DNA of 40,274 nt, taken from the IMG/VR virus record IMGVR_UViG_3300045988_066894, positions 1 to 40,274 of that record; one strand, given 5' to 3'. The notes under the pieces were generated by a model. It had not been told where the DNA came from and did not search any database. It worked only from the letters and a program-made list of their open reading frames with translations. This document shows positions 1-40,122 of this stretch, one piece after another. Position numbers and translations under genes: made by a program. How positions within the stretch are numbered: position 1 is the stretch's first letter; each line of letters starts with the position of its first letter. The DNA comes from a virus.

Positions 1-28
1 AAAAGTGCCTCCAGCGGGACTCGAACCC
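1..28. repeat. attL core: 28-bp direct repeat identical to 40247-40274
   Basis: aaaagtgcctccagcgggactcgaaccc occurs at both window ends. Its reverse complement GGGTTCGAGTCCCGCTGGAGGCA reads as a tRNA T-arm plus 3' acceptor strand. The integrase gene starts 15 bp inside. Confidence 0.9.
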
Positions 29-42
29 ACCGGCGAAAAGCT

Positions 43-1212
43 TCAGACACCAACCGTTTCAACGGTTCCATCGACACCTTGCGTCACGTTTGCCCACATT
101 TTGCCCACATTCCGCGAAAAAAGCAAACCACCCATCCTCTCCGACAGCTCATCCAGATCATCATCGAAGAGATCGGCGTAAACGTCCAATGTCATGGCGG
201 CGCTCTTGTGCCCCAACTGCCTTTGCACGGTCTTGACGTTAGCGCCGGACTGCACCATAAGTGACGCCGCCGTATGCCGCAGATCGTGAATCGTCATGTG
301 GCCACGCTCCACGCCCGCGCGACGAAGAGCCACCGCGAACCATCCATCGCTTCGCGTCGGATTCCAGCCGTTTCCCATCGGCTCGTCCAAAGGCTCGCCG
401 GGAGCGGTGAAAAGGAAATCGGACGGCCTGCGCCCCTCGCATTGCCTGGCGAGCAGTGGACGCAACACCAGTGGGAACATCACCGAACGTCCATCATGTG
501 TTTTCGGGTCGGTCTCCACCATCTCGCTGGACAGTCTGGTGATGCTACGCCAGATGTGGAGCCTGCATCGTTGCAGGTCAACGTCCTCCACACGCAGTGC
601 GACGAGTTCGCCCCAGCGCATGCCGCACAGGCCCAAGGTCAGCACGATCGGCTCACGCCAACCGCACTGCATCGCCACACGAGACAATTCGTCGGCCGAC
701 AGATAGACATGCTTCCGCACCTGCTTTCGCGGCAGCTCGATGCCGTCGCATGGATTGTCGTGGATGCACCGATCGGCCTTTGCCCTCTCCATGAGACTGC
801 GGAGCAGATTCTCGGCGCGAATCGTCACGGACGCGCTGCGCCGTCCGGCCAGATCGGTGACCCACCGCTGCACTTCGTCGCGTGTGATTGACTGCATCTC
901 CCTCATGCCCCACTGCGGCTCCACATGCACGCGCCAAGCGTCTTCCAGCGACTTGATGTAGCTTGGCTTCGCTTTGGTCTTCTTGGCGGCCAGCCACGGC
1001 TCCCAGAAGTCCTCCACGAGCCTGCGCCCGGCCTGTGGGTCGATGTAGGCTCCGACGCTTTTCGCGGTGGTCACATTGGCCGCTCCCCACGCATCGGCGT
1101 CCATCTTGCGTTTGAAGCCACGCCTTCCGGTGGATGAGCCGTCGGGCTTGCGGTAGCGCACCTCGTATCTTTTTCCGGCTTTGGTGGCGTATTGGCGGAT
1201 CGTGTAGGCCAT
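43..1212 (-). CDS. int: tyrosine-type site-specific integrase
   Basis: 389-aa ORF. C-terminal catalytic signature HDLRHTAASLMVQSGANVKTVQRQLGHKSAAMTLDVYADLF (HxxR ... H ... Y). Lies next to the att core. Confidence 0.95.
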   Translation of the reverse strand: MAYTIRQYATKAGKRYEVRYRKPDGSSTGRRGFKRKMDADAWGAANVTTAKSVGAYIDPQAGRRLVEDFWEPWLAAKKTKAKPSYIKSLEDAWRVHVEPQWGMREMQSITRDEVQRWVTDLAGRRSASVTIRAENLLRSLMERAKADRCIHDNPCDGIELPRKQVRKHVYLSADELSRVAMQCGWREPIVLTLGLCGMRWGELVALRVEDVDLQRCRLHIWRSITRLSSEMVETDPKTHDGRSVMFPLVLRPLLARQCEGRRPSDFLFTAPGEPLDEPMGNGWNPTRSDGWFAVALRRAGVERGHMTIHDLRHTAASLMVQSGANVKTVQRQLGHKSAAMTLDVYADLFDDDLDELSERMGGLLFSRNVGKMWANVTQGVDGTVETVGV

Positions 1213-7309: not shown

Positions 7310-10300
7310 TCACTTGACCAAATAAGCCAGGAATTCCGCGTAAACATCCACCGGGCAAGGCTGGTCGGCGTTGTAAAGCTTCAATGTGAAGCCGCTCTGA
7401 CCGCCCGTATTGGCCGGGTGCGCGATGATGCCCGCCCAATCGCTGTCCGCGTTAGCGACAACGTAATAGTGGCCGTATTTTGTGGGGCTGAACGTGCAAT
7501 TGACTTGCATGGAAGCGCCGGTCGCAATCTTCGAGCCGGGATTCGGATACCACGCCTTCCACGCAGCCTGGGCATGGAACGTAAAACGGTTCGTGATGCC
7601 GCCGAGATAGCCGCCGAGATACACGTATCCGGTGCCGATGTTCGCGCCGACTCCGACCTCGCCGTTCCCGTCTTCGGCTTCGAGCCAGCACTCCGAACCG
7701 TTCGCGCTATCGCCGGCCAGAGTGAGGAAAGCGCTGCTTTTCTTGCTCTCGTCCGGCTCGTCGTAATCCGTGTTCGCCACGGCATGCACTCTGGATGTGA
7801 CGCCGCCGCTGCCGGTACCGCCTTTCTTGCGCGGCTTCGATCTGAGAGACATGAACGCGGCAGGATCGTTCTTGCTCACGTGTCCGCTCCACAAGTCCAG
7901 TTCGCTCATCGCGCCGACCTGATTCGACTGGATGACAGAAGCGATGGCCGGATGCGAAAAGTAGGCGGTGGACCCGTTGTAGGCCGGGAATTCCAAGCCA
8001 TCACCGACGAACGTTTCCGTGCCGCCGATGATGTAGGTCTGATAATCCGGACTGATACGCACCCTGTGCCCGCTGATGCGGGTTTGGAAAGTGCCGGTCA
8101 GCAGATTCGACTTGCCTTCGCCGTCAAGATAGACGGTGCGATTGTGGTTGCTGTCCCACATTTGCAAGGCCGTGCTATTGAGCTTCATGCCCGTGTTCGC
8201 GGCCTCGGAGCTCTGGAAGACGGCGCCCGTGAAGACGTAGCCCTTGAACTGGCCTGCCGCCACCTTGTCGGACGTGATAGTGCCAGCCGCGATCTTGACG
8301 GCCGTCACACTGTTTGCCGCGAGCTTGTCGGCGGTGATGGCACCGGTCACAATCTTGGACGCATTGACCGAATTAGCAGCCAATTTGTCGGCATTCACGA
8401 CACCAGCCGCCAAGGCAGCAGTGGTCACGGCATTAGCCGCAATCTCCCCGGCCTGAATCTTGTGGACGTTGAGCAACGCGACCGTCATATCCTCCGTGAC
8501 CTTGAGCTTCGCGGTCGTGACCGAGTTCGCGGCCAGCTTGTCGGTGCCGATGGCACCGGCCTGTACCTTACCCGCCGTCACGCTGTTCGCGGCCAATTTG
8601 TCGGCGTTAACCGCATTGGCCGCGAGCTTGTCGGTCGTGACGGCGCCAGCCACGATGTCAACAGCATTGATCTTGTGCGCGTTGAGCAACGCGACCGTCA
8701 TATCCTCCGTGACCTTGAGCTTCGCGGTCGTGACCGAGTTCGCGGCCAGCTTGTCAGCGGTGATGGCGAGCGAGACGATGTTGCGCGCCTGCACGCTGTC
8801 AGCGGCGAGTTTCGCGGCGGTCACCGCGTCGGCAACCAGCTTTTCAGTGGTCACCGAATTGGCGGCCAGCTTGTCCACCGTGATCGCATTGGCCTTGACC
8901 TTCTCGGCGGTCACGGAATCCACGGCGAGATGCTTCGCAGCCACCGTGCCCGACGCGAGAATGTTGTTCGCCACGAGGTCAAAAGGCTCGAAGCGCGTAC
9001 CATCCCACGTCAGCACCTCCACCACGCGATCAGACAGAGGCACCAAGACGCTCGGACTGTTATTCGGAGTCCCCTGCCAGTATGTGTAAAAGTCCGCGAG
9101 CAGTGATGGGCTTGCGTTCTTCCCCCCTTGCCAGCGCGTCCAATACTTCTGCGTGCGCCACCACATGTCACCCGGCTTCAACCCATCATGCGCGGGTTCG
9201 TCCGGGCCACGGTAGATCAGATTCTTCCCGTCCGCCGTGGTCTGCGCCTTTTTCGCGGCGGCCTGCGCCTGATTCGCCTGTGACGCGGCGTTGGCGGCTG
9301 TGGTCTGAGCCTTGTCAGCCGTTGATTGCGCCGTCTGCGCGGCAGCATGGGCCTTGACAGCCGCATTGGCGGCATCCGTGGCCGCCTTGTCCGTCACAGC
9401 CATCCATGTGCTGCCGTTCCAACGTTTCGGCGTGTTCGCGCCGCCGGTGGTGTCGATCCACAAGGTAGTCGGCTTGCGCATCGACGTATCCGGCGCAGTG
9501 GACTGGATCAGCACGTCGGCCTTGCCGTTAGCCACGCCAGCGGCGGCGGCAGCAGCCGTATTCGCCTTCTGCGCCGCCCTGGCCGCGTCCGTGGCGGACT
9601 GGGCCGCACTGTCGGCGGTGGCCTTCGCCTGCGTGGCAACGCTCGAAGCGTTCGAGGCGGTGGCCTTGGCATTGGCCGCATCGGTCTTCGCGGTGGAAGC
9701 GTCCGACTTGGCGGAAGCCGCGTCGGACTTGGCCGCATTGGCCGAAGCGTTGGCGGTGTTTGCCAGTGTTTCGGCATTGCCAGCGGTCTTCTTGGCGCTT
9801 TCGGCGGCGGTCTGGGCGGCATTGGCGGCATCCTTGGCCTGACCTGCGGTGGCGGTGGCGCTCTTCGCGGCAGCGGTAGCCGCATTGGCGGTATCCTGCG
9901 CTGTCTTCGCCGCACCATTGGCCGTATCAGCCGTGCCCTGCGCGTTTTTCGCTGCGGCAGCGGCATTCTCAGCAGCCTTCTTGGCGTCGGTGGTCTTCGC
10001 GGCATTGTCCGCGATATCCGACTTAGCCTTGGAAATCTCGTCCGCGTTCTTCTCGACATCGGCATAGCCGAGATGGTTCCAATTCGAGCCATCCCACACC
10101 AAGGTGTCGATCACGCGGTCGGACAATGGCACGAGCACGCTCGGACTGTTATTCGGAGTCCCCTGCCAGTATGTGTAAAAGTCCGCAAGCAGTGAGGGGC
10201 TGTTGTTCTTCTCGCCCTGCCAGCGCGTCCAATACTTCTGCGTCTTGAGCCACAGGTCGCCGACGATCAGACCTTTTGAGGCGTCCGGCATGTCAGGCCC

Positions 10301-12586
10301 ACGGAAGGTATGGTTCTTGCTATGGGCCTCGGCATACGCCTGTGCAGCCGACTCCTTGGCCTTCGAAATCTCCCCGTTCGCGGTGGTCAGGTCGCTTTTG
10401 GTCTGCGCGATGTCCTTCCGGGCCTGCGACAGATCGGCCTGCGCCTGCGAGAGCGTCTGATTCGCCGTGTCGAGATTCGACCTGTTGGCTTGGATGTCCT
10501 TCTGCGCCTGCGACAGCTTCGCAGTATTATCCCTCAACGTGGCGTTGGCAGAGTCGATGGCCGACTGGTTCGCCTTGATGTCCGACTTCGCGGATTCAAG
10601 CTCTTTCGCCGTGGCTGCCTGCGCAGTCTGATTCGCGGCGATGTCCTTCCGCGCCTGATCGAGCTTGGCCGTATTATCCTGCAAAGCCGTCTTGTTGTCA
10701 GCCAAATCCTGCTGGATTCGCTTGACCTCTTCAGGTGAAACCGCGGAAGCCACGGTGACAGTGGCGACTGCCGACCAAGCGGAGCGATTGCCCGCATGAT
10801 CCACGGACCTCAGCGCATAGGAGTGCTGGGAACCGGAGGCCAGACCGGTCACGAGATAATCGCCCTGACCGGACTGGTTTGCGCTGATGACGGTCATGCC
10901 GGACGCATTGACACCCTCGCCGACCTCAATATGATCGAAGTCCGATTCCATTTGAGCGCCAGTGCTTGTCCTGCCATCCCAGTGGACGGTCACCACGCCA
11001 AGCTCGGACGACAACACCGGCTCCGACGGTACGGAGCATGGCGTCGTATCCGATTCGACGGTGGCCACGACGATGCCCGACCAGTCTCCGAGCTTGTCCG
11101 AATACGTCGGCACAGCCCTGACCCTGACCTCGATTTGCGTGCCGCAATCCAAGCCTCCGAAGCCAAGCTGCGTCTTATCCGTCGTGCCCGCCGCATGCCA
11201 GGGCGCGCCATCCACGTGCTTGCGCCACTCGACGGCGTAATTGCTGATTTCGATGGCGGTGTTATTCGTCGCTTCGGTCACTGCAGACCACGAAGCCGTG
11301 GCCAGACCATGCGCGAAACCATCGCTGCCGATATAGGCATCAGTCTGCACCACAAGCCCAAGCGGAGCCTTCGGCACGCGATGGTCACGGTCGGACGAGG
11401 CGGTCGTGCCGCCCTCGCTACCGGCCAACGCGGCACCACCGGTGATGCCCTTGAGCTTCTTCGCCTGACGCACGGAAGCGTCATACTTAATATCATTCAG
11501 AGCGATTGAGCAGGATAAGCCCTCGTTCTGGCGCATGCTCAGGTCGATTTCCTGCACGCGCACCTTCTCGCCATGGGAGACGGTGGGAGCCGTAATCCAA
11601 TCGCCAGCATGGAAGTCGATGAGCGGTAGATTATCCACGCCGGAAGTCACCAGATCGCGCGTGTACTGGCCGCGTACCCTAGCCGCATCATCAAGCGTGG
11701 ACTGCATGAATGCCTGCGCAGTGTCCTTGTCGGACACGCCACCCTGCGAGCTATAGGATTCCCACTTGCCCCAAGGCGTCGGAGCAGCCGGATTATCCAT
11801 GCGGAAAAGCAGGTTATTGTCACCCTCGACAAGGATAGTGGATGCCAGGTCGGCGATGGACTCCTCGAAGGGTGCCTCGCTGATGTCACGAGCCAATTGC
11901 AGCACAATGCTCTTGCTCAGGTCACGGCTCAATGCGGTGCTGTCCGCATTCCACAGCTTGAGCGTCCTACCTGTGGTGCGCCAGTCGCAGCCACCGCCAT
12001 TGACAAGAGACGACAGGATCGTCTGCAGATCCGTGCCGAGACTGTAATAAAGCGTGTATTTCCTCGCCCACGCCGCGCCGCCCGCGTCCTTCGCGGTGTC
12101 GAAGCCCAAGGTCAGTCCGGTGGCCACGCCGCCACGCGCCTTGTTTTCGTCCAACAGCGTTTTGAGGATCACGCCCGGATTAGACGAATAGAAGGGCCTT
12201 TTGCCCTTGTTGTCGCCGTCCGTGAGCAGATGGCTGTAATCGTTGTTCTCGGCCTTGCTCAGGAGCCAGCTTATCGACTGACCACTGTAGGTGACGGTGC
12301 GAGTCCGGTCATCGGTCTTGCCGCTACGGCCAGTGATGACGTAGCGCGCGTTGTCCGGCTCACGATAGCCTGTGCCGTCCGACACCTCCACGGCCACTTC
12401 GAGACCGTCCGTAAGCTCACGGTCGAATGCCTGGGCGTCACCGGACAGCAGCGAGTATTCGATACTAATCGCACCATCGTCATTGTGCAGCATGGATGCG
12501 CTGAAGCTCACCGGCTCCGCAAGGACGCCGATTCGCTCGCCGAATGGGCGGTAGGCCACGAGTCGCGCGTGAAGAGACTTGCTCAT
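7310..12586 (-). CDS. giant tail-tip / tail fibre protein (Tal-like N-terminus, Fn3-like region, duplicated Ala-rich coiled coils, repeat beta-helix, C-terminal receptor-binding region)
   Basis: 1758 aa, located after TMP and Dit. Ala/Lys/Gln-rich heptad segments occur twice. There are about 20 copies of an 11-residue A-x-S/A-V-T-x-x-K-L-A-A type repeat. The W-rich YWTRWQG..N.SPS motifs are duplicated. Confidence 0.8.
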   Translation of the reverse strand: MSKSLHARLVAYRPFGERIGVLAEPVSFSASMLHNDDGAISIEYSLLSGDAQAFDRELTDGLEVAVEVSDGTGYREPDNARYVITGRSGKTDDRTRTVTYSGQSISWLLSKAENNDYSHLLTDGDNKGKRPFYSSNPGVILKTLLDENKARGGVATGLTLGFDTAKDAGGAAWARKYTLYYSLGTDLQTILSSLVNGGGCDWRTTGRTLKLWNADSTALSRDLSKSIVLQLARDISEAPFEESIADLASTILVEGDNNLLFRMDNPAAPTPWGKWESYSSQGGVSDKDTAQAFMQSTLDDAARVRGQYTRDLVTSGVDNLPLIDFHAGDWITAPTVSHGEKVRVQEIDLSMRQNEGLSCSIALNDIKYDASVRQAKKLKGITGGAALAGSEGGTTASSDRDHRVPKAPLGLVVQTDAYIGSDGFAHGLATASWSAVTEATNNTAIEISNYAVEWRKHVDGAPWHAAGTTDKTQLGFGGLDCGTQIEVRVRAVPTYSDKLGDWSGIVVATVESDTTPCSVPSEPVLSSELGVVTVHWDGRTSTGAQMESDFDHIEVGEGVNASGMTVISANQSGQGDYLVTGLASGSQHSYALRSVDHAGNRSAWSAVATVTVASAVSPEEVKRIQQDLADNKTALQDNTAKLDQARKDIAANQTAQAATAKELESAKSDIKANQSAIDSANATLRDNTAKLSQAQKDIQANRSNLDTANQTLSQAQADLSQARKDIAQTKSDLTTANGEISKAKESAAQAYAEAHSKNHTFRGPDMPDASKGLIVGDLWLKTQKYWTRWQGEKNNSPSLLADFYTYWQGTPNNSPSVLVPLSDRVIDTLVWDGSNWNHLGYADVEKNADEISKAKSDIADNAAKTTDAKKAAENAAAAAKNAQGTADTANGAAKTAQDTANAATAAAKSATATAGQAKDAANAAQTAAESAKKTAGNAETLANTANASANAAKSDAASAKSDASTAKTDAANAKATASNASSVATQAKATADSAAQSATDAARAAQKANTAAAAAAGVANGKADVLIQSTAPDTSMRKPTTLWIDTTGGANTPKRWNGSTWMAVTDKAATDAANAAVKAHAAAQTAQSTADKAQTTAANAASQANQAQAAAKKAQTTADGKNLIYRGPDEPAHDGLKPGDMWWRTQKYWTRWQGGKNASPSLLADFYTYWQGTPNNSPSVLVPLSDRVVEVLTWDGTRFEPFDLVANNILASGTVAAKHLAVDSVTAEKVKANAITVDKLAANSVTTEKLVADAVTAAKLAADSVQARNIVSLAITADKLAANSVTTAKLKVTEDMTVALLNAHKINAVDIVAGAVTTDKLAANAVNADKLAANSVTAGKVQAGAIGTDKLAANSVTTAKLKVTEDMTVALLNVHKIQAGEIAANAVTTAALAAGVVNADKLAANSVNASKIVTGAITADKLAANSVTAVKIAAGTITSDKVAAGQFKGYVFTGAVFQSSEAANTGMKLNSTALQMWDSNHNRTVYLDGEGKSNLLTGTFQTRISGHRVRISPDYQTYIIGGTETFVGDGLEFPAYNGSTAYFSHPAIASVIQSNQVGAMSELDLWSGHVSKNDPAAFMSLRSKPRKKGGTGSGGVTSRVHAVANTDYDEPDESKKSSAFLTLAGDSANGSECWLEAEDGNGEVGVGANIGTGYVYLGGYLGGITNRFTFHAQAAWKAWYPNPGSKIATGASMQVNCTFSPTKYGHYYVVANADSDWAGIIAHPANTGGQSGFTLKLYNADQPCPVDVYAEFLAYLVK
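8467..8755. repeat. two perfect 76-bp direct repeats (8467-8542 and 8680-8755) inside the tail fibre gene
   Basis: cgttgagcaacgcgaccgtcatatcctccgtgaccttgagcttcgcggtcgtgaccgagttcgcggccagcttgtc occurs twice. The 213-bp offset is 71 codons, so it is in frame. Confidence 0.9.
9048..10186. repeat. about 190-bp diverged direct repeat with 50-bp perfect cores (9048-9097 and 10137-10186) inside the tail fibre gene
   Basis: acgctcggactgttattcggagtcccctgccagtatgtgtaaaagtccgc occurs twice. The 1089-bp offset is 363 codons. It encodes the duplicated ...LLADFYTYWQGTPNNSPSVLVPLSDR... module. Confidence 0.9.
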
Positions 12587-36857: not shown

Positions 36858-37106
36858 TCAGGCTTTGAATTGTTTGATGCTGTCGATCGGCTGGATGAGG
36901 AGCATGACGAGGTTTTCTGGTTCCATGTCGAGCATGGATGCCGCTTTTTCGATCTCGTCCGTCGAGAGTGGCGTGTGGCCTTTGAGCCTGTTGTTTACGG
37001 CTCTGATTTCAAGGCCCCATGCTTTTGCTAGGTCTTTCGGTGTCTTGTCGTGTCTTGCGAGTTCCGCTTTGAGGTTTCTGCTGGCTGTTTCCGTCAGGCC
37101 GGCCAT
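36858..37106 (-). CDS. Cro-like XRE-family HTH regulator
   Basis: KTPKDLAKAWGLEIRAVNNRLKG. Divergent from the CI-like repressor across an operator region. Confidence 0.65.
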   Translation of the reverse strand: MAGLTETASRNLKAELARHDKTPKDLAKAWGLEIRAVNNRLKGHTPLSTDEIEKAASMLDMEPENLVMLLIQPIDSIKQFKA

Positions 37107-37222: not shown

Positions 37223-37260
37223 CTCGTTTTTCCTTTCGACGGTTTTTAATATACGTAATT

Positions 37261-37340: not shown

Positions 37341-37703
37341 ATGGGAAGAAAAGCACAGGAGGTCACGCATTTCGCCAAGCAGGTCATGGACGAATGCGTC
37401 AGGCTCCAAAAGCAAAGCGGCATGACCATCAAGGAATTCGCCAAGGCCTGCGGCTTCGGCGAGGTCTACTGGTACACGAGAGCAAACTACAGCCTCCCGC
37501 TCAATCTGAGTGACCTGGAACGCATCAGCGAAGTGACCGGCGTGTCCATCGGAGACATCGTGATGGATTCCAAACGTCATGCGATTGAGGAAGCGGAAGC
37601 GAAGGCGCAGGCAGGCGGTTATGGTCTTGCCGCCTATAACGCTCAGGGCAAGCAGGAGGCCATTAATGGAGAGGCTGGGCCGGATTACGACGAGCCTGCC
37701 TGA
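37341..37703 (+). CDS. CI/ImmR-like XRE-family repressor
   Basis: MTIKEFAKACGFGEVYWYTRAN HTH. Followed by an overlapping ImmA-type protease gene. Confidence 0.75.
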   Translation: MGRKAQEVTHFAKQVMDECVRLQKQSGMTIKEFAKACGFGEVYWYTRANYSLPLNLSDLERISEVTGVSIGDIVMDSKRHAIEEAEAKAQAGGYGLAAYNAQGKQEAINGEAGPDYDEPA

Positions 37704-38118
37704 CCTGCCGATCGACCGGCGCATGACCTACGGTGCCATGCGCCGCGCCATCATCGGCCTGCCCGTCACCGTGTCCAGCGCCATCCTGCCGGACGGACTA
37801 TGGGGCTGCTACGACGCCACCACAGACGTAATCCTCATCGATAGACGGCTCACATATGCCGCCAAGCGCTGCACTTTGGTGCATGAGCTGATGCATTGGC
37901 GTCATGGAGACGCGGCGTGTGACCGGCTGGGCCGCGGCCGTGAGGAGCGCAGGGCGCGCCGCGAATCGGCGCTCTTCCTCGTCGAACCGATGAGATACGG
38001 ACTGCTCGAACAGATGTACGATGGCAATTCGTGGAATATCGCCCAGGAATTGGAGGTGACCCAGCAGGTGCTCGGAGACTTCCGACTGGCAATGTCTGAG
38101 CGAGTCTGCATCATTTGA
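37666..38118 (+). CDS. ImmA/IrrE-family zinc metalloprotease
   Basis: HELMHWRHGD (HExxH). Start refined to MERLGR 6 nt after AGGAGG. Overlaps the repressor 3' end by 38 nt. Confidence 0.8.
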   Translation: MERLGRITTSLPDLPIDRRMTYGAMRRAIIGLPVTVSSAILPDGLWGCYDATTDVILIDRRLTYAAKRCTLVHELMHWRHGDAACDRLGRGREERRARRESALFLVEPMRYGLLEQMYDGNSWNIAQELEVTQQVLGDFRLAMSERVCII

Positions 38119-38155
38119 GCAATAGAATCAAAGAGAAAAGAAGAAGGGAGCAATC

Positions 38156-38446
38156 ATGGCGAAGAGACCACAGCCTGCACCGGACGCGATCTACGAGTGC
38201 GAAAGGCTTGACGATCCGCTGTTTATGGGCATACGCCTGTATGCCAATCGCCTGGAATTGGATGTCTGCACGACGTACCTGCACCGGTACAAGAAGACCG
38301 AAGCATACCAGGTAAGCGACCTGCAGGGCGTGGTGTTGAAGAAGCGCACGGTCACATGGAAATACAGTACGCTGCGCTCACTGCCACTGAAATTCAAAAA
38401 AGCCGAGGACGCGCAGGAATTCTACAATGCCGTGAACAGCCTCTAA
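38156..38446 (+). CDS. hypothetical protein (96 aa), last gene of the lysogenic operon
   Basis: ORF with SD (AAGGGAG), followed by a strong terminator. Confidence 0.6.
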   Translation: MAKRPQPAPDAIYECERLDDPLFMGIRLYANRLELDVCTTYLHRYKKTEAYQVSDLQGVVLKKRTVTWKYSTLRSLPLKFKKAEDAQEFYNAVNSL

Positions 38447-38453
38447 AAGCATT

Positions 38454-38480
38454 AAGCCCCACAATTCGTGGGGCTTTTAT
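38454..38480 (+). terminator. rho-independent terminator
   Basis: AAGCCCCAC-aattc-GTGGGGCTT forms a 9-bp perfect stem followed by TTTAT. Confidence 0.8.
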
Positions 38481-38505: not shown

Positions 38506-39300
38506 TTATATCTGCTTCAGGCGCTCGAATACCTGTGCCGTCTGTGCGGCATCGTCGGCGGCCCTATGACGCTCCGTCTTGGCGATGCCGAAATAGCGGA
38601 TGAGGTCGAGCAGCCTATGGCGGTCAAGCTGCGGCAAAAGTGTCTGAGAGATTTCCAAGGTGTCATAGAAGCTGACGTCCGGCATGCCGACACCCGCTCT
38701 TTCGGCTTCGCGGGCGATGACCGGCAGGTCGAAGCGGCGAATATTGTGCCCTATCCACGTATCATGCCCGCAGAAAGCGTAGAACTTTGGTAGCGCTTTG
38801 TCGATGGTGGGTTTGCCTTTGACGTCCCGGTCGGTGATGCCGGTGATCTGCGTAACCTTGGCCGGTATCGGAATCTGCGGGTTGACGAGCTGGCCGAATG
38901 ACGCGACCTTGCGCCCATGGCGCATGCGCACCGCACCAAGCTCGATGATCCGAGCGCTTCTACCCAATCCTGTGGTCTCGATGTCGATGGCCACGTAATC
39001 GTCGTAATCAGTTTCCGCGACATTTCCACGCTCCGTGTCGGCCGTCTCTGCCGTCTGCGTTGCCATGGCGTCCGATTGGGCTTCCTGAGACGGTTCAGGG
39101 GCATTCTCCGCTTGATGCTTATGGCGTGGCTCGGGCTTGAGGAAGAGATGCATGAAGAACCATGCGAGGAATGCGAGGAGCAGAATCGCAATGATGCTTG
39201 TGGCCAGATTATCCTGCGGTGTGGTGATGGTGTCGTATATGCCGTAGATGCCGGAGATTCCGCACAGCACGGATAGCACGAGGTAAATCAGTTTCTTCAT
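38506..39300 (-). CDS. membrane-anchored DEDDh (DnaQ/epsilon-like) 3'-5' exonuclease
   Basis: Start refined to MKKLIYL after GGAGAAGGAAGGGG. Two N-terminal TM helices, an acidic/Gln linker, then ExoI AIDIETTG, ExoII HNIRRFDLPVI and ExoIII HRAADDA. Confidence 0.75.
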   Translation of the reverse strand: MKKLIYLVLSVLCGISGIYGIYDTITTPQDNLATSIIAILLLAFLAWFFMHLFLKPEPRHKHQAENAPEPSQEAQSDAMATQTAETADTERGNVAETDYDDYVAIDIETTGLGRSARIIELGAVRMRHGRKVASFGQLVNPQIPIPAKVTQITGITDRDVKGKPTIDKALPKFYAFCGHDTWIGHNIRRFDLPVIAREAERAGVGMPDVSFYDTLEISQTLLPQLDRHRLLDLIRYFGIAKTERHRAADDAAQTAQVFERLKQI

Positions 39301-39423
39301 TTTTCCCCTTCCTTCTCCTTGCTTCAAGCTACCGCAGATGGGGATTGGACGTGCCGATTCTTTCTTTTTTCGGCGCATTGCGCCTTATAAAAAGAATGTT
39401 AAAACTTGTAGAGTCTTATATAT

Positions 39424-39516
39424 GTGCAATTGCGATTGCACCGAACGTCTCTATTTTCTCTTTTGCAATTTTACTCGCTGTGCAATTTGACTTCTACTTT
39501 CGAGTGCAATTATAAT
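39424..39516 (+). promoter_or_regulatory. consensus-like promoter (TTGACT-18-TATAAT) embedded in an array of (G)TGCAAT repeats
   Basis: The palindrome GTGCAATTGCGATTGCAC lies at 39424-39441. Further TGCAAT copies are at 39464, 39481 and 39505. The -35 box is at 39487-39492 and the -10 box at 39511-39516. Confidence 0.55.
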
Positions 39517-39624: not shown

Positions 39625-40122
39625 ATGGAAGACATGGGATACCAGAACACGCAAGCCCTTTACGACCTAAACCGCACCGGACGCCTCGCCAAGAAGCGCG
39701 GAGACAACCTGACCTGCTATACCACTGCGCAACTCGCAATCTCCTTCATGTGCTCCATGACCTACGACTGGGACCGCGAACGCAACCAGCCACCCGAGAA
39801 GCTGCGCAAGGTCAACGCGCCATGCCGCTACTACACGCTCGGCTGGCGTGCCATCGCCGACGCATTCGGAATGATTCTACTCACGCCGGAGCAGTCCATG
39901 GGCGAGAATGCCGATAAGGAGATGAAGAAGCGCGAGAACACAGTCAAGACGAACATCAGCAACGCTTGGCTGTTCCTGCAGGAGCGTGGCGTGATCAAGA
40001 AGCTGGAACCCGCCTCGCTCGGAAAGAACGCCGGCTTCCTGTTGCTGCTTGGCGACGACGAGGAGAATCTGGCGGTGGAACGGTGGGCGAGGCAATGCCT
40101 CGGACTGCCGATGATCTGGTGA
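39625..40122 (+). CDS. hypothetical protein (165 aa), possibly a wHTH regulator
   Basis: Start refined to MEDMGYQ 6 nt after GGAGGG. The long track ORF from 39424 runs through the promoter and operator array. Confidence 0.55.
   Translation: MEDMGYQNTQALYDLNRTGRLAKKRGDNLTCYTTAQLAISFMCSMTYDWDRERNQPPEKLRKVNAPCRYYTLGWRAIADAFGMILLTPEQSMGENADKEMKKRENTVKTNISNAWLFLQERGVIKKLEPASLGKNAGFLLLLGDDEENLAVERWARQCLGLPMIW

Follow-up and report, generated by a model that had tools for sequence, protein, structure and literature searches.

The window, by which we mean the whole 40,274-nt stretch of DNA analyzed here, is one whole prophage with identical 28-nt att repeats at both ends, and its immunity region contains a gene for a DEDDh 3'-5' exonuclease that is predicted to be tethered to the membrane by an N-terminal hairpin. 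We consider prophage defense or superinfection exclusion to be the best reading of this protein, and give that reading an even chance of being correct. It is favored by the architecture of the protein, the position of the gene in the immunity region, its accessory status, the recurrence of similar proteins in lysogeny modules, and the fusion of a related exonuclease to an AbiD-like domain.

The prophage and its immunity region

The carrier is a temperate Bifidobacterium siphovirus. The landmarks around the exonuclease gene are the following:

43-1212, minus strand: integrase
37341-38446, plus strand: immunity operon (HTH repressor, ImmA/IrrE-type M78 protease and orf96), converging on the exonuclease gene
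37341-37703, plus strand: HTH repressor (Pfam HTH_26/HTH_31; PHROG repressor)
37723-38118, plus strand: ImmA/IrrE-type M78 protease (Pfam Peptidase_M78; PHROG metalloprotease)
38156-38446, plus strand: orf96, third gene of the immunity operon
38454-38476, no strand assigned: two-way intrinsic terminator, a stem-loop with T-runs on both strands, between the repressor/ImmA/orf96 operon (plus) and the exonuclease gene (minus)
38506-39300, minus strand: gene for the predicted membrane-tethered DEDDh exonuclease, a 264-aa ORF with its stop codon at 38506-38508
39424-39516, plus strand: TGCAATT/GTGCAAT repeat cluster, overlapping the promoter-like site that faces orf165
39625-40122, plus strand: orf165, the divergent neighbor, between the exonuclease gene and attR
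40247-40274, no strand assigned: attR core, an exact 28-nt direct repeat of attL (1-28) and the 3' part of a tRNA gene (minus strand)

The ORF layout bears out the statement in the initial annotation that the exonuclease gene lies on the strand opposite to both of its neighbors. The same annotation placed the gene between the terminator of the repressor operon and attR; both landmarks are where this implies, at 38454-38476 and 40247-40274, but orf165 intervenes and the gene is not adjacent to attR. The product of orf165 had no match in Pfam, PADLOC, PHROG or NCBIfam. Its alleles in relatives range from 30 to 99% identity, and it persists also in relatives that lack the exonuclease. A promoter scan found a promoter-like sigma-70 site, TTGACT-18-TATAAT (39487-39516), pointing to orf165; the repeat cluster that overlaps it holds four of the five GTGCAAT sites of the whole window within 87 bp, and this stretch of repeats and promoter is mosaic among relatives.

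A gene with its own leader and terminator

Upstream of the exonuclease gene we found these elements:

39301-39410, minus strand: conserved non-coding leader, 110 nt
39372-39384: 13-nt palindrome GGCGCATTGCGCC in the leader
39384-39389: -10-like TATAAG in the leader

The leader is conserved in 27 diverse relatives, while the more distal intergenic DNA is mosaic. The start codon at 39300 is preceded by a Shine-Dalgarno run, AAGGAGAAGGAAGGGG, at 39305-39320. A longer, 290-aa reading from an ATG at 39378 is unlikely, and we rejected it because 4-nt and 10-nt indels in relatives break the frame there.

The upstream region is AT-rich, as had been described (GC 0.435 versus 0.59), but its sole consensus-grade sigma-70 site is the one that faces orf165, and the promoter scan returned no own-strand promoter of consensus grade for the exonuclease gene. 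The best own-strand candidate, TCTACA-17-TATAAG, was found by eye; a promoter of the gene's own is only weakly predicted. The conserved palindrome beside the -10-like element might act as an operator and keep the gene silent in lysogens. Operator palindromes of the form CGTAATTACG occur in the window at positions 37254 and 37278 only; a motif search found none upstream of the exonuclease gene, and we rejected control through the operator of the prophage repressor for that reason. Judged by its leader and terminator, the gene is a putative transcription unit of its own within the immunity region. Its GC and GC3 match those of the phage, and it is therefore old cargo rather than a recent import.

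Architecture of the protein

The 264 residues divide into three parts, each encoded on the minus strand:

39139-39291: N-terminal membrane hairpin, from hydropathy peaks, positive-inside charges and AlphaFold helices
39235-39291: predicted TM1, residues 4-22 (Kyte-Doolittle 19-mer 1.97)
residues 23-35: short predicted outside loop
39139-39195: predicted TM2, residues 36-54 (Kyte-Doolittle 19-mer 2.67)
39001-39138: juxtamembrane motif KPEPRHKHQ, then a variable, disordered stretch rich in acidic residues, Gln and Thr; residues 55-100
38509-39000: DEDDh (DnaQ/PolC-like) 3'-5' exonuclease domain, residues 101-264, from Pfam, PADLOC, PHROG and NCBIfam domain matches

Our AlphaFold (AF2) model, computed with a 60-sequence alignment as input (a single-sequence prediction had a pLDDT of 46), places the hairpin helices at residues 2-26 and 29-54 with pLDDT 81-87. 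The N-terminus begins MKK, the loop has no K or R and two D, and K55, R59 and K61 follow TM2. From hydropathy, the positive-inside rule and the AF2 helices we predict an N-in, loop-out, C-in topology with the exonuclease facing the cytoplasm, in agreement with the orientation first proposed, and most of the membrane-anchored lineages that we compared have the same charge pattern. A lipoprotein or secreted reading was rejected: there is no lipobox (the -1 residue is Leu), and the charges place the C-terminus inside. In one relative (L157) the hairpin has been exchanged for an unrelated one.

The linker (residues 55-100) has a net charge of -9, and residues 59-97 are modeled as disordered, with pLDDT below 50. 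Within the juxtamembrane motif, K55, P56, P58-K61 and Q63 are invariant and E57 and H62 nearly so in an alignment of relatives, among which the linker is present in several allelic forms. The dN/dS ratio is 0.21 overall, 0.36 for the hairpin, 0.54 for the linker and 0.12 for the exonuclease domain, the catalytic domain being the part under the strongest purifying selection.

Residues 103-258 match the whole of the Pfam RNase_T profile (PF00929, positions 1-164 of 164; E = 1.3e-33, 117.3 bits against a cutoff of 24). The Exo I DxE, Exo II D and Exo III Hx4D motifs are all present, with catalytic residues D106 and E108 (DIETTG), D191 (NIRRFD), and H245 and D250 (HRAADDA), and these are invariant or nearly so in three alignments that cover close and distant relatives. 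Hydropathy, the AF2 model, the Pfam match and the catalytic residues all support the original description, in which a hairpin of two TM helices is joined through a linker to a full DEDDh core.

The AF2 model of the domain exceeds pLDDT 93 over most of its length. Foldseek matches it to the Streptococcus thermophilus DnaQ domain 8h2f (TM 0.87, rmsd 1.9 A), and DnaQ domains, PolC, DinG, epsilon, ExoX, Cas2-DEDDh and a TREX1 homologue rank ahead of RNases. Also among the fold matches are TREX1 and TREX2 and the ssDNA complexes of DinG and ExoX; the structural match to PolC 2p1j is poor (rmsd about 10 A). By sequence, the PDB matches are PolC exonuclease, DnaQ, Cas2-DEDDh and DinG, and Pfam adds a weak match (28.9 bits) to the Rv2179c-like exoribonuclease family. 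On this model the domain is a member of the DEDDh superfamily with an RNase H-like exonuclease fold, and its nearest relatives point to DNA rather than RNA as the probable substrate.

Homologues and an optional cargo slot

More than 200 homologues, at 73-94% identity, are found in Bifidobacterium and in gut viral contigs. PHROG 192 and NCBI-type names label such relatives 'DNA polymerase exonuclease subunit'. Against cultured-phage records, megablast of the region gave no match and a protein search gave domain-level matches only, below 40% identity; one of these is a DEDDh gene without a membrane anchor that adjoins attR in Clostridium phage phiCT9441A. A scan of species-representative genomes returned almost only generic DEDDh proteins, with the close family missing, and viral-contig scans with two distant members (P0136 and P0139) gave no useful loci. 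We set aside another protein (P0353; 238 aa), which has no hairpin, is chromosomal beside a sigma factor, and does not belong to the same class.

Among 72 scorable relatives anchored on ImmA, the exonuclease gene is intact in 46 and a decayed remnant in 8, whereas the other 18 lack it or have something else in its place, and it is therefore optional cargo. This comparison supports the accessory, 'moron'-like status that had been proposed: the presence of the gene among otherwise similar prophages is patchy, and it has its own terminator. The genes that replace it in the slot encode lipoproteins, a membrane coiled-coil protein, a SocA/Panacea toxin-antitoxin pair and an HSDR_N restriction-like nuclease. 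At one locus (L173), a different cargo gene of no recognized function stands behind the same leader. At another (L167), the slot holds an exonuclease domain 51% identical to ours fused to an Abi_2/AbiD domain; Abi_2 (PF07751) is present only in this and one other related fusion (L009), and the window protein is without it. Some variants bear added BRCT or NUMOD-like DNA- or protein-binding domains.

Membrane-anchored DEDDh proteins in other lineages

The initial annotation had proposed a survey of homologue neighborhoods, and we compared about nine lineages, picked by similarity rather than as a systematic census. Wherever an actinobacterial or Firmicute lineage offered enough context, its membrane-anchored DEDDh proteins, which are distant from ours or unrelated to it, are encoded beside an integrase and/or a repressor-ImmA switch. 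Lysogeny modules of this kind hold such a gene in a Bifidobacterium lineage at 40% identity (L166), in two Alloscardovia lineages and in four Firmicute-type lineages. In three lineages the DEDDh gene directly follows a CI repressor on the same strand, 8-69 nt past its annotated end; these repressors are of the HTH_3 type (L285) or HTH_3 with Peptidase_S24 (L287/L288 and L290). The genomes found to carry such genes are either those of temperate phages or integrative elements.

Comparison with known systems

The window protein shares its fold and catalytic residues with DnaQ/epsilon, PolC, DinG, Cas2-DEDDh and ExoX at 23-33% identity, and the DnaQ-domain and epsilon matches have target-normalized TM scores of 0.75-0.87 and rmsd 1.8-1.9 A. 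Those proteins have no membrane anchor, and the window protein for its part has no polymerase-binding tail, no helicase and no Cas2 partner. Its best NCBIfam equivalog scores, which stay far under the cutoffs (for example 99.4 versus 245 and 61.9 versus 222.7), place it outside Pol III epsilon and PolC. It also falls outside Cas2-DEDDh, since PADLOC PDLC01247 matches the exonuclease domain only; no Cas-like gene was found among the immediate neighbors scanned (the immunity genes, orf96 and orf165).

TREX1 is a mammalian DEDDh 3'-5' DNA exonuclease, anchored in the endoplasmic reticulum, that clears cytosolic and viral DNA. As predicted for the window protein, it is membrane-tethered with its active site in the cytosol, and it has a role against foreign DNA; it differs in being a dimeric eukaryotic protein held by a C-terminal tail anchor rather than an N-terminal hairpin. 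The resemblance is one of analogy, the closest relatives of the window domain being bacterial DnaQ and PolC domains. A second parallel is with superinfection exclusion in temperate phages of Gram-positive hosts, namely lactococcal Sie2009 and Ltp of S. thermophilus phage TP-J34. Both are small proteins associated with the membrane, their genes lie between integrase and repressor, and they are thought to act at DNA entry. These too are membrane-associated products of a lysogeny module, and the slot in our relatives also holds lipoproteins and membrane proteins, but Sie2009 and Ltp have no enzymatic domain, act outside or within the membrane to block injection, and show no sequence similarity to the window protein.

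SNIPE is an anti-phage nuclease bound to the membrane (Saxton et al., Nature 2026, PMC13190303). It consists of one polypeptide, anchored in the membrane at its N-terminus and with its nuclease domain in the cytoplasm, features that are predicted for the window protein; the anchor of SNIPE is believed to hold the nuclease away from host DNA, some of its homologues have two TM segments, and it acts on DNA during cell entry, as we propose for the window protein (PMC13190303). The two have no sequence or fold relationship: SNIPE has a DUF4041 domain that binds DNA and tape-measure protein and a GIY-YIG endonuclease, neither of which Pfam finds in the window protein, a DEDDh exonuclease on a disordered tether. 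The function of SNIPE is demonstrated; that of the window protein is a proposed one.

Among DEDDh enzymes, the ISG20-like TONDOs are single-gene exonucleases with variable auxiliary domains, often encoded on prophages and plasmids (bioRxiv 2026, PMC13344964). Nuclease-dependent defense is shown for some of them, and they trim the 3' ends of RNA-phage genomes (PMC13344964). They resemble our family as single-gene DEDDh exonucleases with auxiliary domains, but the cited part of that preprint mentions no membrane anchor. By fold, the window domain lies nearer to DNA proofreading exonucleases than to RNases of the ERI/ISG20 type. The PADLOC PDC-S48 profiles begin with a similar DEDDh domain (E = 2.6e-29), but positions 5-166 and 6-179 alone are matched, of profiles with 411 and 512 positions. 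The link to AbiD is through the sister exonuclease of the same slot, which carries the AbiD-like domain that the window protein lacks. That the architecture is absent from named defense systems had been suggested from the start, and our searches agree: PADLOC gave domain-level matches only and no named system, and searches of the literature found no described membrane-anchored DEDDh defense protein. SNIPE and TREX1 are analogues only.

Proposed function and alternative explanations

We infer that the nuclease would be made in the lysogen and act as an exclusion or defense factor encoded by the prophage. Held by the hairpin through a flexible acidic tether some 40 aa long, it would stay at the cytoplasmic face of the membrane and there encounter the free 3' ends that linear DNA exposes while being threaded into the cell. 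Were those ends trimmed, for example the cohesive or terminal ends used for circularization, a superinfecting phage or other DNA would fail to establish. The host would be spared, as its circular chromosome and the resident prophage should have no free ends at the membrane, and the anchor would also hold the nuclease away from the nucleoid. In other words, self would be distinguished from non-self by the topology and location of the DNA. Two points speak against the defense reading. A double-stranded genome might withstand a proofreading-type exonuclease that works alone, and nothing in the window protein corresponds to an added module for binding DNA or sensing injection, of the kind that DUF4041 provides in SNIPE.

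The protein could instead be an abortive-infection effector, sequestered by its hairpin and tether until membrane damage or linker cleavage on infection frees the nuclease to attack nicked or replicating host and phage DNA. That the sister exonuclease domain of this slot is joined to an Abi_2/AbiD (HEPN-like) module would fit such a role, as would the disordered, variable and fast-evolving linker (dN/dS 0.54), the toxicity of anchorless SNIPE to its host (PMC13190303), and the mild toxicity of an overproduced phage DnaQ-like protein in M. smegmatis (bioRxiv 10.64898/2025.12.12.693979). However, the exonuclease gene has no regular companion that could encode a protease, sensor or partner (orf165 varies independently and persists without it), the invariant KPEPRHKHQ suggests that the protein works fixed in place near the membrane and is not released, and a 3'-5' exonuclease, requiring free ends, would be a weak killer where genomes are circular. 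We judge this explanation unlikely.

Less likely still is a general barrier to other incoming DNA, in which the enzyme would degrade single strands entering by transformation (3' end first) or conjugation and so protect the host of the prophage from competing mobile elements. Proofreading-type DEDDh enzymes favor single-stranded 3' ends, the nearest structures include the DinG and ExoX ssDNA complexes, the active site is predicted to lie on the cytoplasmic membrane face, and some variants have BRCT or NUMOD-like binding domains, all of which would suit this role. But conjugative DNA enters 5' end first, and to our knowledge natural competence is not established for Bifidobacterium. The carriers in our survey are moreover temperate phages or integrative elements, and it is in this slot that genes for anti-phage exclusion are placed.

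To much the same degree, we doubt a role in the phage lytic cycle, whether in processing the ends of the phage's own genome after injection, in replication or recombination at a membrane replisome, or in degrading host DNA. The names given to relatives suggest such a role, the exonuclease gene shares its strand with the early and late genes, and the conserved palindrome at the -10-like element might function as a regulated operator. However, about a third of close relatives have no gene or only a remnant, and the two-way terminator and the entire opposite-strand immunity operon separate the gene from the early genes. A Pfam scan of ten ORFs of the window found a Prim-Pol primase-polymerase and no replicative DNA polymerase, and no NCBIfam epsilon or PolC equivalog cutoff was reached. 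Counterparts in Firmicute phages are placed right behind the CI repressor, and a mycobacteriophage can grow lytically without its DnaQ-like gene (bioRxiv 10.64898/2025.12.12.693979).

An RNA or small-nucleotide substrate (3' trimming of incoming-phage RNA, clearance of short oligonucleotides, or destruction of nucleotide immune signals as counter-defense) is very improbable: the DEDDh superfamily does include RNase T, oligoribonuclease, ERI and ISG20, the Rv2179c-like Pfam match exists, DEDD dinucleases occur on actinobacterial mobile elements (PMC11706625), and ISG20-like bacterial exonucleases defend against RNA phages (PMC13344964), but DNA proofreading exonucleases rank first by both sequence and fold (E = 5e-13 versus about 1e-9 to 1e-7 for RNases), and a membrane tether has no obvious use for a diffusible substrate.

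Possible implications for prophage defense

Beyond this one prophage, we think it possible, at somewhat less than an even chance, that membrane-tethered DEDDh exonucleases are a widespread, unnamed class of single-gene defense or exclusion proteins in the temperate phages of Actinobacteria and Firmicutes, destroying or blunting entering 3' ends and telling self from non-self by DNA topology and membrane location. Such proteins would stand as bacterial counterparts to TREX1, and would parallel SNIPE with an exonuclease. If confirmed, it would be a second entry-site defense that recognizes DNA by where and when it appears rather than by its sequence, with an exonuclease acting on ends in place of the endonuclease of SNIPE, and a membrane-anchored DEDDh DNA exonuclease would be an evolutionary parallel to TREX1. 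In this survey the architecture occurs in two phyla, including gut prophages of Bifidobacterium. The hypervariable slot between ImmA/orf96 and orf165/att, with its reusable leader, is a source of further candidate defense genes. Exclusion by prophages shapes which phages infect bifidobacteria, and a defense role for the tethered exonuclease would thus bear on the ecology of the infant gut and on probiotic strains.

Prophage setting of the exonuclease gene

Both ends of the window (1-28 and 40247-40274) carry the same 28 nt as an exact direct repeat (AAAAGTGCCTCCAGCGGGACTCGAACCC), which forms the 3' part of a minus-strand tRNA gene; the window therefore represents one complete prophage of approximately 40.2 kb, from attL to attR. 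ARAGORN found no complete tRNA in the window, because the tRNA gene is severed at its edge.

Features of the prophage. The entries from the Cro-like gene to orf165 follow the order of the right end, which attR closes.
43-1212, minus strand: integrase
Minus strand, all: GH25/LysM lysin; tail, head and packaging genes; primase-polymerase; Bro-N/ANT antirepressor
36858-37106, minus strand: Cro-like HTH gene
37341-38446, plus strand: HTH repressor, ImmA/M78 protease and orf96
38454-38476: two-way terminator, between orf96 and the exonuclease gene
38506-39300, minus strand: exonuclease gene, intact ORF, 264-aa product
39305-39320, minus strand: Shine-Dalgarno run AAGGAGAAGGAAGGGG, graded strong
Between the exonuclease gene and orf165: AT-rich spacer, 324 bp
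39625-40122, plus strand: orf165, between the spacer and attR

The initial annotation placed the exonuclease gene between the repressor-operon terminator and attR; the terminator is where it was claimed to be, but orf165 intervenes before attR. The gene was also credited with an AT-rich upstream region of its own. The spacer is indeed AT-rich (GC 0.435 versus 0.59 for the prophage), but its only consensus-grade sigma-70 site (TTGACT-18-TATAAT, 39487-39516) is directed at orf165. The exonuclease gene itself is phage-like in composition (GC 0.574, GC3 0.71). Elsewhere in the prophage, a 1,758-aa tail-region protein (7310-12586, minus strand) has many degenerate 30-nt (10-aa) periodic repeats, located at 8292-8917 and 9359-9912, and a 213-nt tandem duplication, while the gene at 1978-2787 carries four to five 15-nt tandem repeats (2038-2112).

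A membrane-anchored DEDDh exonuclease

Some gene callers start the gene 26 codons upstream, at ATG 39378. We aligned the upstream DNA of 27 diverse relatives and found that 4-nt and 10-nt indels break this longer frame, so the 264-aa start is correct. The two-TM hairpin, linker and complete DEDDh core described in the initial annotation were all recovered. Hydrophobic segments span residues 4-22 and 36-54 (Kyte-Doolittle 19-mer means of 1.97 and 2.67), and the linker consists of an invariant KPEPRHKHQ followed by an acidic Gln/Thr-rich stretch, with a net charge of -9 over residues 55-100. The entire Pfam RNase_T profile (PF00929) matches residues 103-258 at E=1.3e-33. All five catalytic residues (D106, E108, D191, H245 and D250) are present, and alignments of close relatives (A1), of distant relatives that have a membrane anchor (A3) and of 60 diverse DEDDh proteins (A6) show them conserved. 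An AlphaFold model computed from a 60-sequence alignment (mean pLDDT 84.5) contains helices at 2-26 and 29-54, disorder at 59-97, and an exonuclease domain in which pLDDT exceeds 93 everywhere but in one ten-residue block (87). The closest solved structure is the S. thermophilus DnaQ domain (8h2f/8h18; E 5e-13, TM 0.87, rmsd 1.9 Å), with PolC exonuclease, the DinG N-terminal domain, Pol III epsilon, ExoX, Cas2-DEDDh and a TREX1 homologue also near. The nearest structures are DNA 3'-5' exonucleases throughout, and RNases (ERI, RNase T) rank below them. With each defining feature tested and found, the product is a member of the DEDDh superfamily.

Orientation was assigned by the positive-inside rule. 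The N-terminus begins MKK, the 13-14-aa loop has two Asp and no Lys or Arg, and K55, R59 and K61 follow the second helix; because of this charge pattern, the N-terminus is predicted to lie inside, the loop outside and the exonuclease inside, in agreement with the cytoplasmic facing originally proposed. Most of the membrane-anchored DEDDh proteins that we compared, from many lineages, have comparable charges (two to seven K/R before TM1, a short acidic or neutral loop, and three to eight K/R after TM2). We looked for a lipobox in the product and found none.

Calculated across 50 distinct alleles, dN/dS rises from 0.12 in the exonuclease domain to 0.36 in the hairpin and 0.54 in the linker; by this measure the enzyme is under strong purifying selection, and the anchor and tether are evolving faster. 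In one lineage (L157/L238) the hairpin has been exchanged for an unrelated hydrophobic one (MKIRYLFWAIVCICAAWTGLFG...) with the linker and enzyme retained (L157 5998-6759), which makes the anchor look like an exchangeable module.

Optional cargo in a hypervariable slot

Bifidobacterium (B. adolescentis, for example) and gut viral contigs together yield more than 200 close homologues (73-94% identity, lengths of about 261-265 aa). One homologue, found in eight genomic places, always has the neighbourhood orf165 / exonuclease / orf96-ImmA-repressor, either at a prophage end or, on two contigs, in the excised circular form, linked to the integrase through attP. For most of the 79 IMG/VR loci, the distance from the gene to the contig end is 0.8-1.4 kb.

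To score presence and absence, we anchored on the ImmA protein at 80 loci and searched for the exonuclease with tblastn. Eight loci were unscorable because the contig ended; among the remaining 72, the exonuclease domain is intact in 46, a remnant or internally deleted in 8 and absent in 18, which bears out the moron-like status first proposed. At five loci orf96 leads directly into the orf165 spacer, and other loci carry different cargo.

Alternative cargo in the slot.
L179 5428-6516; L211 5437-6525; L212 5436-6524; L164 2713-3843: HSDR_N (type I restriction enzyme R N-terminal, nuclease-like) protein, 362-376 aa, downstream of ImmA
L211 6697-7600, minus strand: SocA/Panacea antitoxin, with a partner of no recognised family
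L173 5879-6583, minus strand, also L174 and L178: 234-aa gene on the same strand as the exonuclease
Lipoproteins, 200-221 aa
Membrane-anchored coiled-coil protein

Given these counts and the replacement cargo, the exonuclease gene is genuine optional cargo in a hypervariable slot, within the immunity region of a temperate phage. The HSDR_N protein, a candidate single-gene defence factor, occurs as alternative or additional cargo and also adjoins a distant TM-exonuclease (a DEDDh exonuclease with an N-terminal membrane segment). A second SocA/Panacea gene has a Fic partner (L279 1562-2535); both cases fall in this cargo region, beside TM-exonuclease genes. The 234-aa gene has no Pfam or PADLOC match; by eye, it shares a similar short motif with a 218-aa gene (L162 4571-5227) adjoining a distant TM-exonuclease.

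Leader and candidate control elements

The spacer between repressor and cro contains two perfect palindromes with the core CGTAATTACG. This motif occurs nowhere else in the window; therefore that operator does not connect the exonuclease gene to the immunity switch. The best promoter candidate on the exonuclease strand is a weak TCTACA-17-TATAAG adjoining a 13-nt palindrome, GGCGCATTGCGCC (39372-39384; 39372-39389 with the -10-like TATAAG), variant forms of which are present in all relatives. It could be an operator, possibly a repressing one, or an RNA hairpin controlling the cargo gene. All relatives (27 diverse sequences aligned) conserve the 110 nt next to the exonuclease start, and this leader, with its ribosome-binding site, also precedes the 234-aa gene of L173, L174 and L178; the leader would thus be a reusable expression platform.

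The distal part of the spacer, on the orf165 side, is mosaic, with at least five types of sequence that are unrelated to one another. The orf165 promoter-like site is interleaved with four TGCAATT copies and one inverted GTGCAAT (cluster 39424-39516), and four of the five GTGCAAT sites in 40 kb lie inside 87 bp. No family match to orf165 was found in Pfam, PADLOC, PHROG or NCBIfam. Its alleles in relatives (30-99% identity) co-vary with the mosaic promoter region; together with the repeat cluster, this suggests a self-contained, possibly autoregulated cassette.

Recurrence in other phages

An exhaustive profile search returned 27,940 DEDDh relatives, only about 50 of them beyond E=1e-30. The best 150 of the 27,940 include many proteins of 230-270 aa, and some of 420-510 aa, with an N-terminal hairpin. 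We surveyed their contexts as a sample of retrievable neighbourhoods rather than a census.

Gene order around TM-exonucleases.
Bifidobacterium L166 (40% identity): integrase, TM-exonuclease, ImmA, repressor
Alloscardovia P0131: integrase, DUF2335, TM-exonuclease, M78 proteases, HTH switch
Alloscardovia P0136: Panacea+Fic pair, TM-exonuclease, DUF3800, ImmA
Firmicute-type P0298: HTH repressor, TM-exonuclease, integrase
Firmicute-type P0264: 112-aa gene, TM-exonuclease, integrase
P0303 (hairpin + DEDDh + BRCT): begins 16 nt past the annotated end of an HTH+Peptidase_S24 CI repressor; then RhuM, integrase
P0306 (single TM + DEDDh): begins 9 nt past the annotated end of an S24 repressor; element with serine recombinase
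P0369: adjoins a divergent HTH pair, small element

The retrievable contexts agree: TM-exonucleases recur in lysogeny modules of unrelated phages of Actinobacteria and Firmicutes, beside integrase or repressor genes in the sampled lineages. The gene's position in three lineages would allow co-transcription with the repressor responsible for maintaining lysogeny. One 238-aa protein (P0353) was excluded from the class; it has no hairpin, is chromosomal and adjoins a sigma factor gene.

Fusion proteins of 550-577 aa (L167 1783-3435; L009 6927-8660, Bifidobacterium sp. ESL0784) combine a sister exonuclease domain (44-51% identical) with Abi_2/AbiD (HEPN-like, RNAVSH motif). The L167 fusion lies between integrase and ImmA/repressor, that is, in the exonuclease's slot; we found no named defence system combining the two domains. 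Three proteins of 470-510 aa (P0168, P0181 and P0197) join a two-helix N-terminal hairpin and DEDDh domain to a C-terminal NUMOD/homing-endonuclease-like DNA-binding tail. The final gene ahead of attR in phiCT9441A, a cultured prophage of Clostridium tetani, encodes gp78 (L289 3779-4921), a DEDDh protein of 380 aa that has no membrane segment; this is a further DEDDh exonuclease carried as prophage-end cargo.

Comparison with known systems and proposed function

The initial annotation recognised no named defence system here, and PADLOC agrees, its hits being at domain level: the PDC-S48 profile matches the protein in its exonuclease part alone, so the protein is not PDC-S48. Nor is it Cas2-DEDDh, as the match is limited to the exonuclease domain and the neighbours are not Cas-like, or a replicative proofreading subunit, since it falls below every NCBIfam equivalog cutoff. 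TREX1, also among the fold matches, is a eukaryotic membrane-anchored DEDDh DNA exonuclease. We found no description in the literature of a membrane-anchored DEDDh defence or exclusion protein, and no cultured-phage record among those searched carries this family; in a survey of defence systems in Bifidobacterium, DEDDh comes up only next to CRISPR loci. DEDDh exonucleases with auxiliary domains are shown to defend against RNA phages (PMC13344964). SNIPE, a membrane-bound GIY-YIG nuclease, cleaves phage DNA while it is being injected and is kept from self-cleavage by its anchor (PMC13190303). The window protein lacks both DUF4041 and GIY-YIG by Pfam and is thus not SNIPE, which nevertheless provides an experimental precedent for the spatial logic proposed here (PMC13190303). 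The kinds to which we liken the gene are membrane-tethered nucleases acting at entry and prophage exclusion genes.

The product is a membrane-anchored, DnaQ-like exonuclease whose enzyme domain is predicted to lie on the cytoplasmic side, with an intact and selectively maintained active site. It may be expressed in the lysogen, its substrate is probably DNA, and its role may be protective. The best reading, which we hold at about even confidence, is a prophage-encoded exclusion or defence nuclease. A specific mechanism, end-trimming at the entry site, is somewhat less probable: the tethered enzyme would encounter linear DNA as it enters at the membrane and trim its free 3' ends. Such trimming could take away the ends that circularisation requires, or leave the genome open to further degradation. 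The host would be spared, its circular chromosome and prophage offering no free ends at the membrane. Counting against defence are the weak promoter prediction on the exonuclease strand, the protein's lack of an added DNA-binding or sensing module, and the conserved leader palindrome with its possible repressing function.

Alternatively, the enzyme might be an abortive-infection effector let go from the membrane, which we consider unlikely, or a barrier against transforming or conjugative DNA, which seems more doubtful. A role in the lytic cycle is just as doubtful: about a third of relatives have no intact copy, a two-way terminator separates the gene from the repressor operon, and in other phages it is placed in linkage with CI. 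That the substrate is RNA or small nucleotides is very improbable.

We infer the functional role of the window exonuclease; it merits attention because such proteins recur across phyla and because of its likeness to SNIPE and TREX1.
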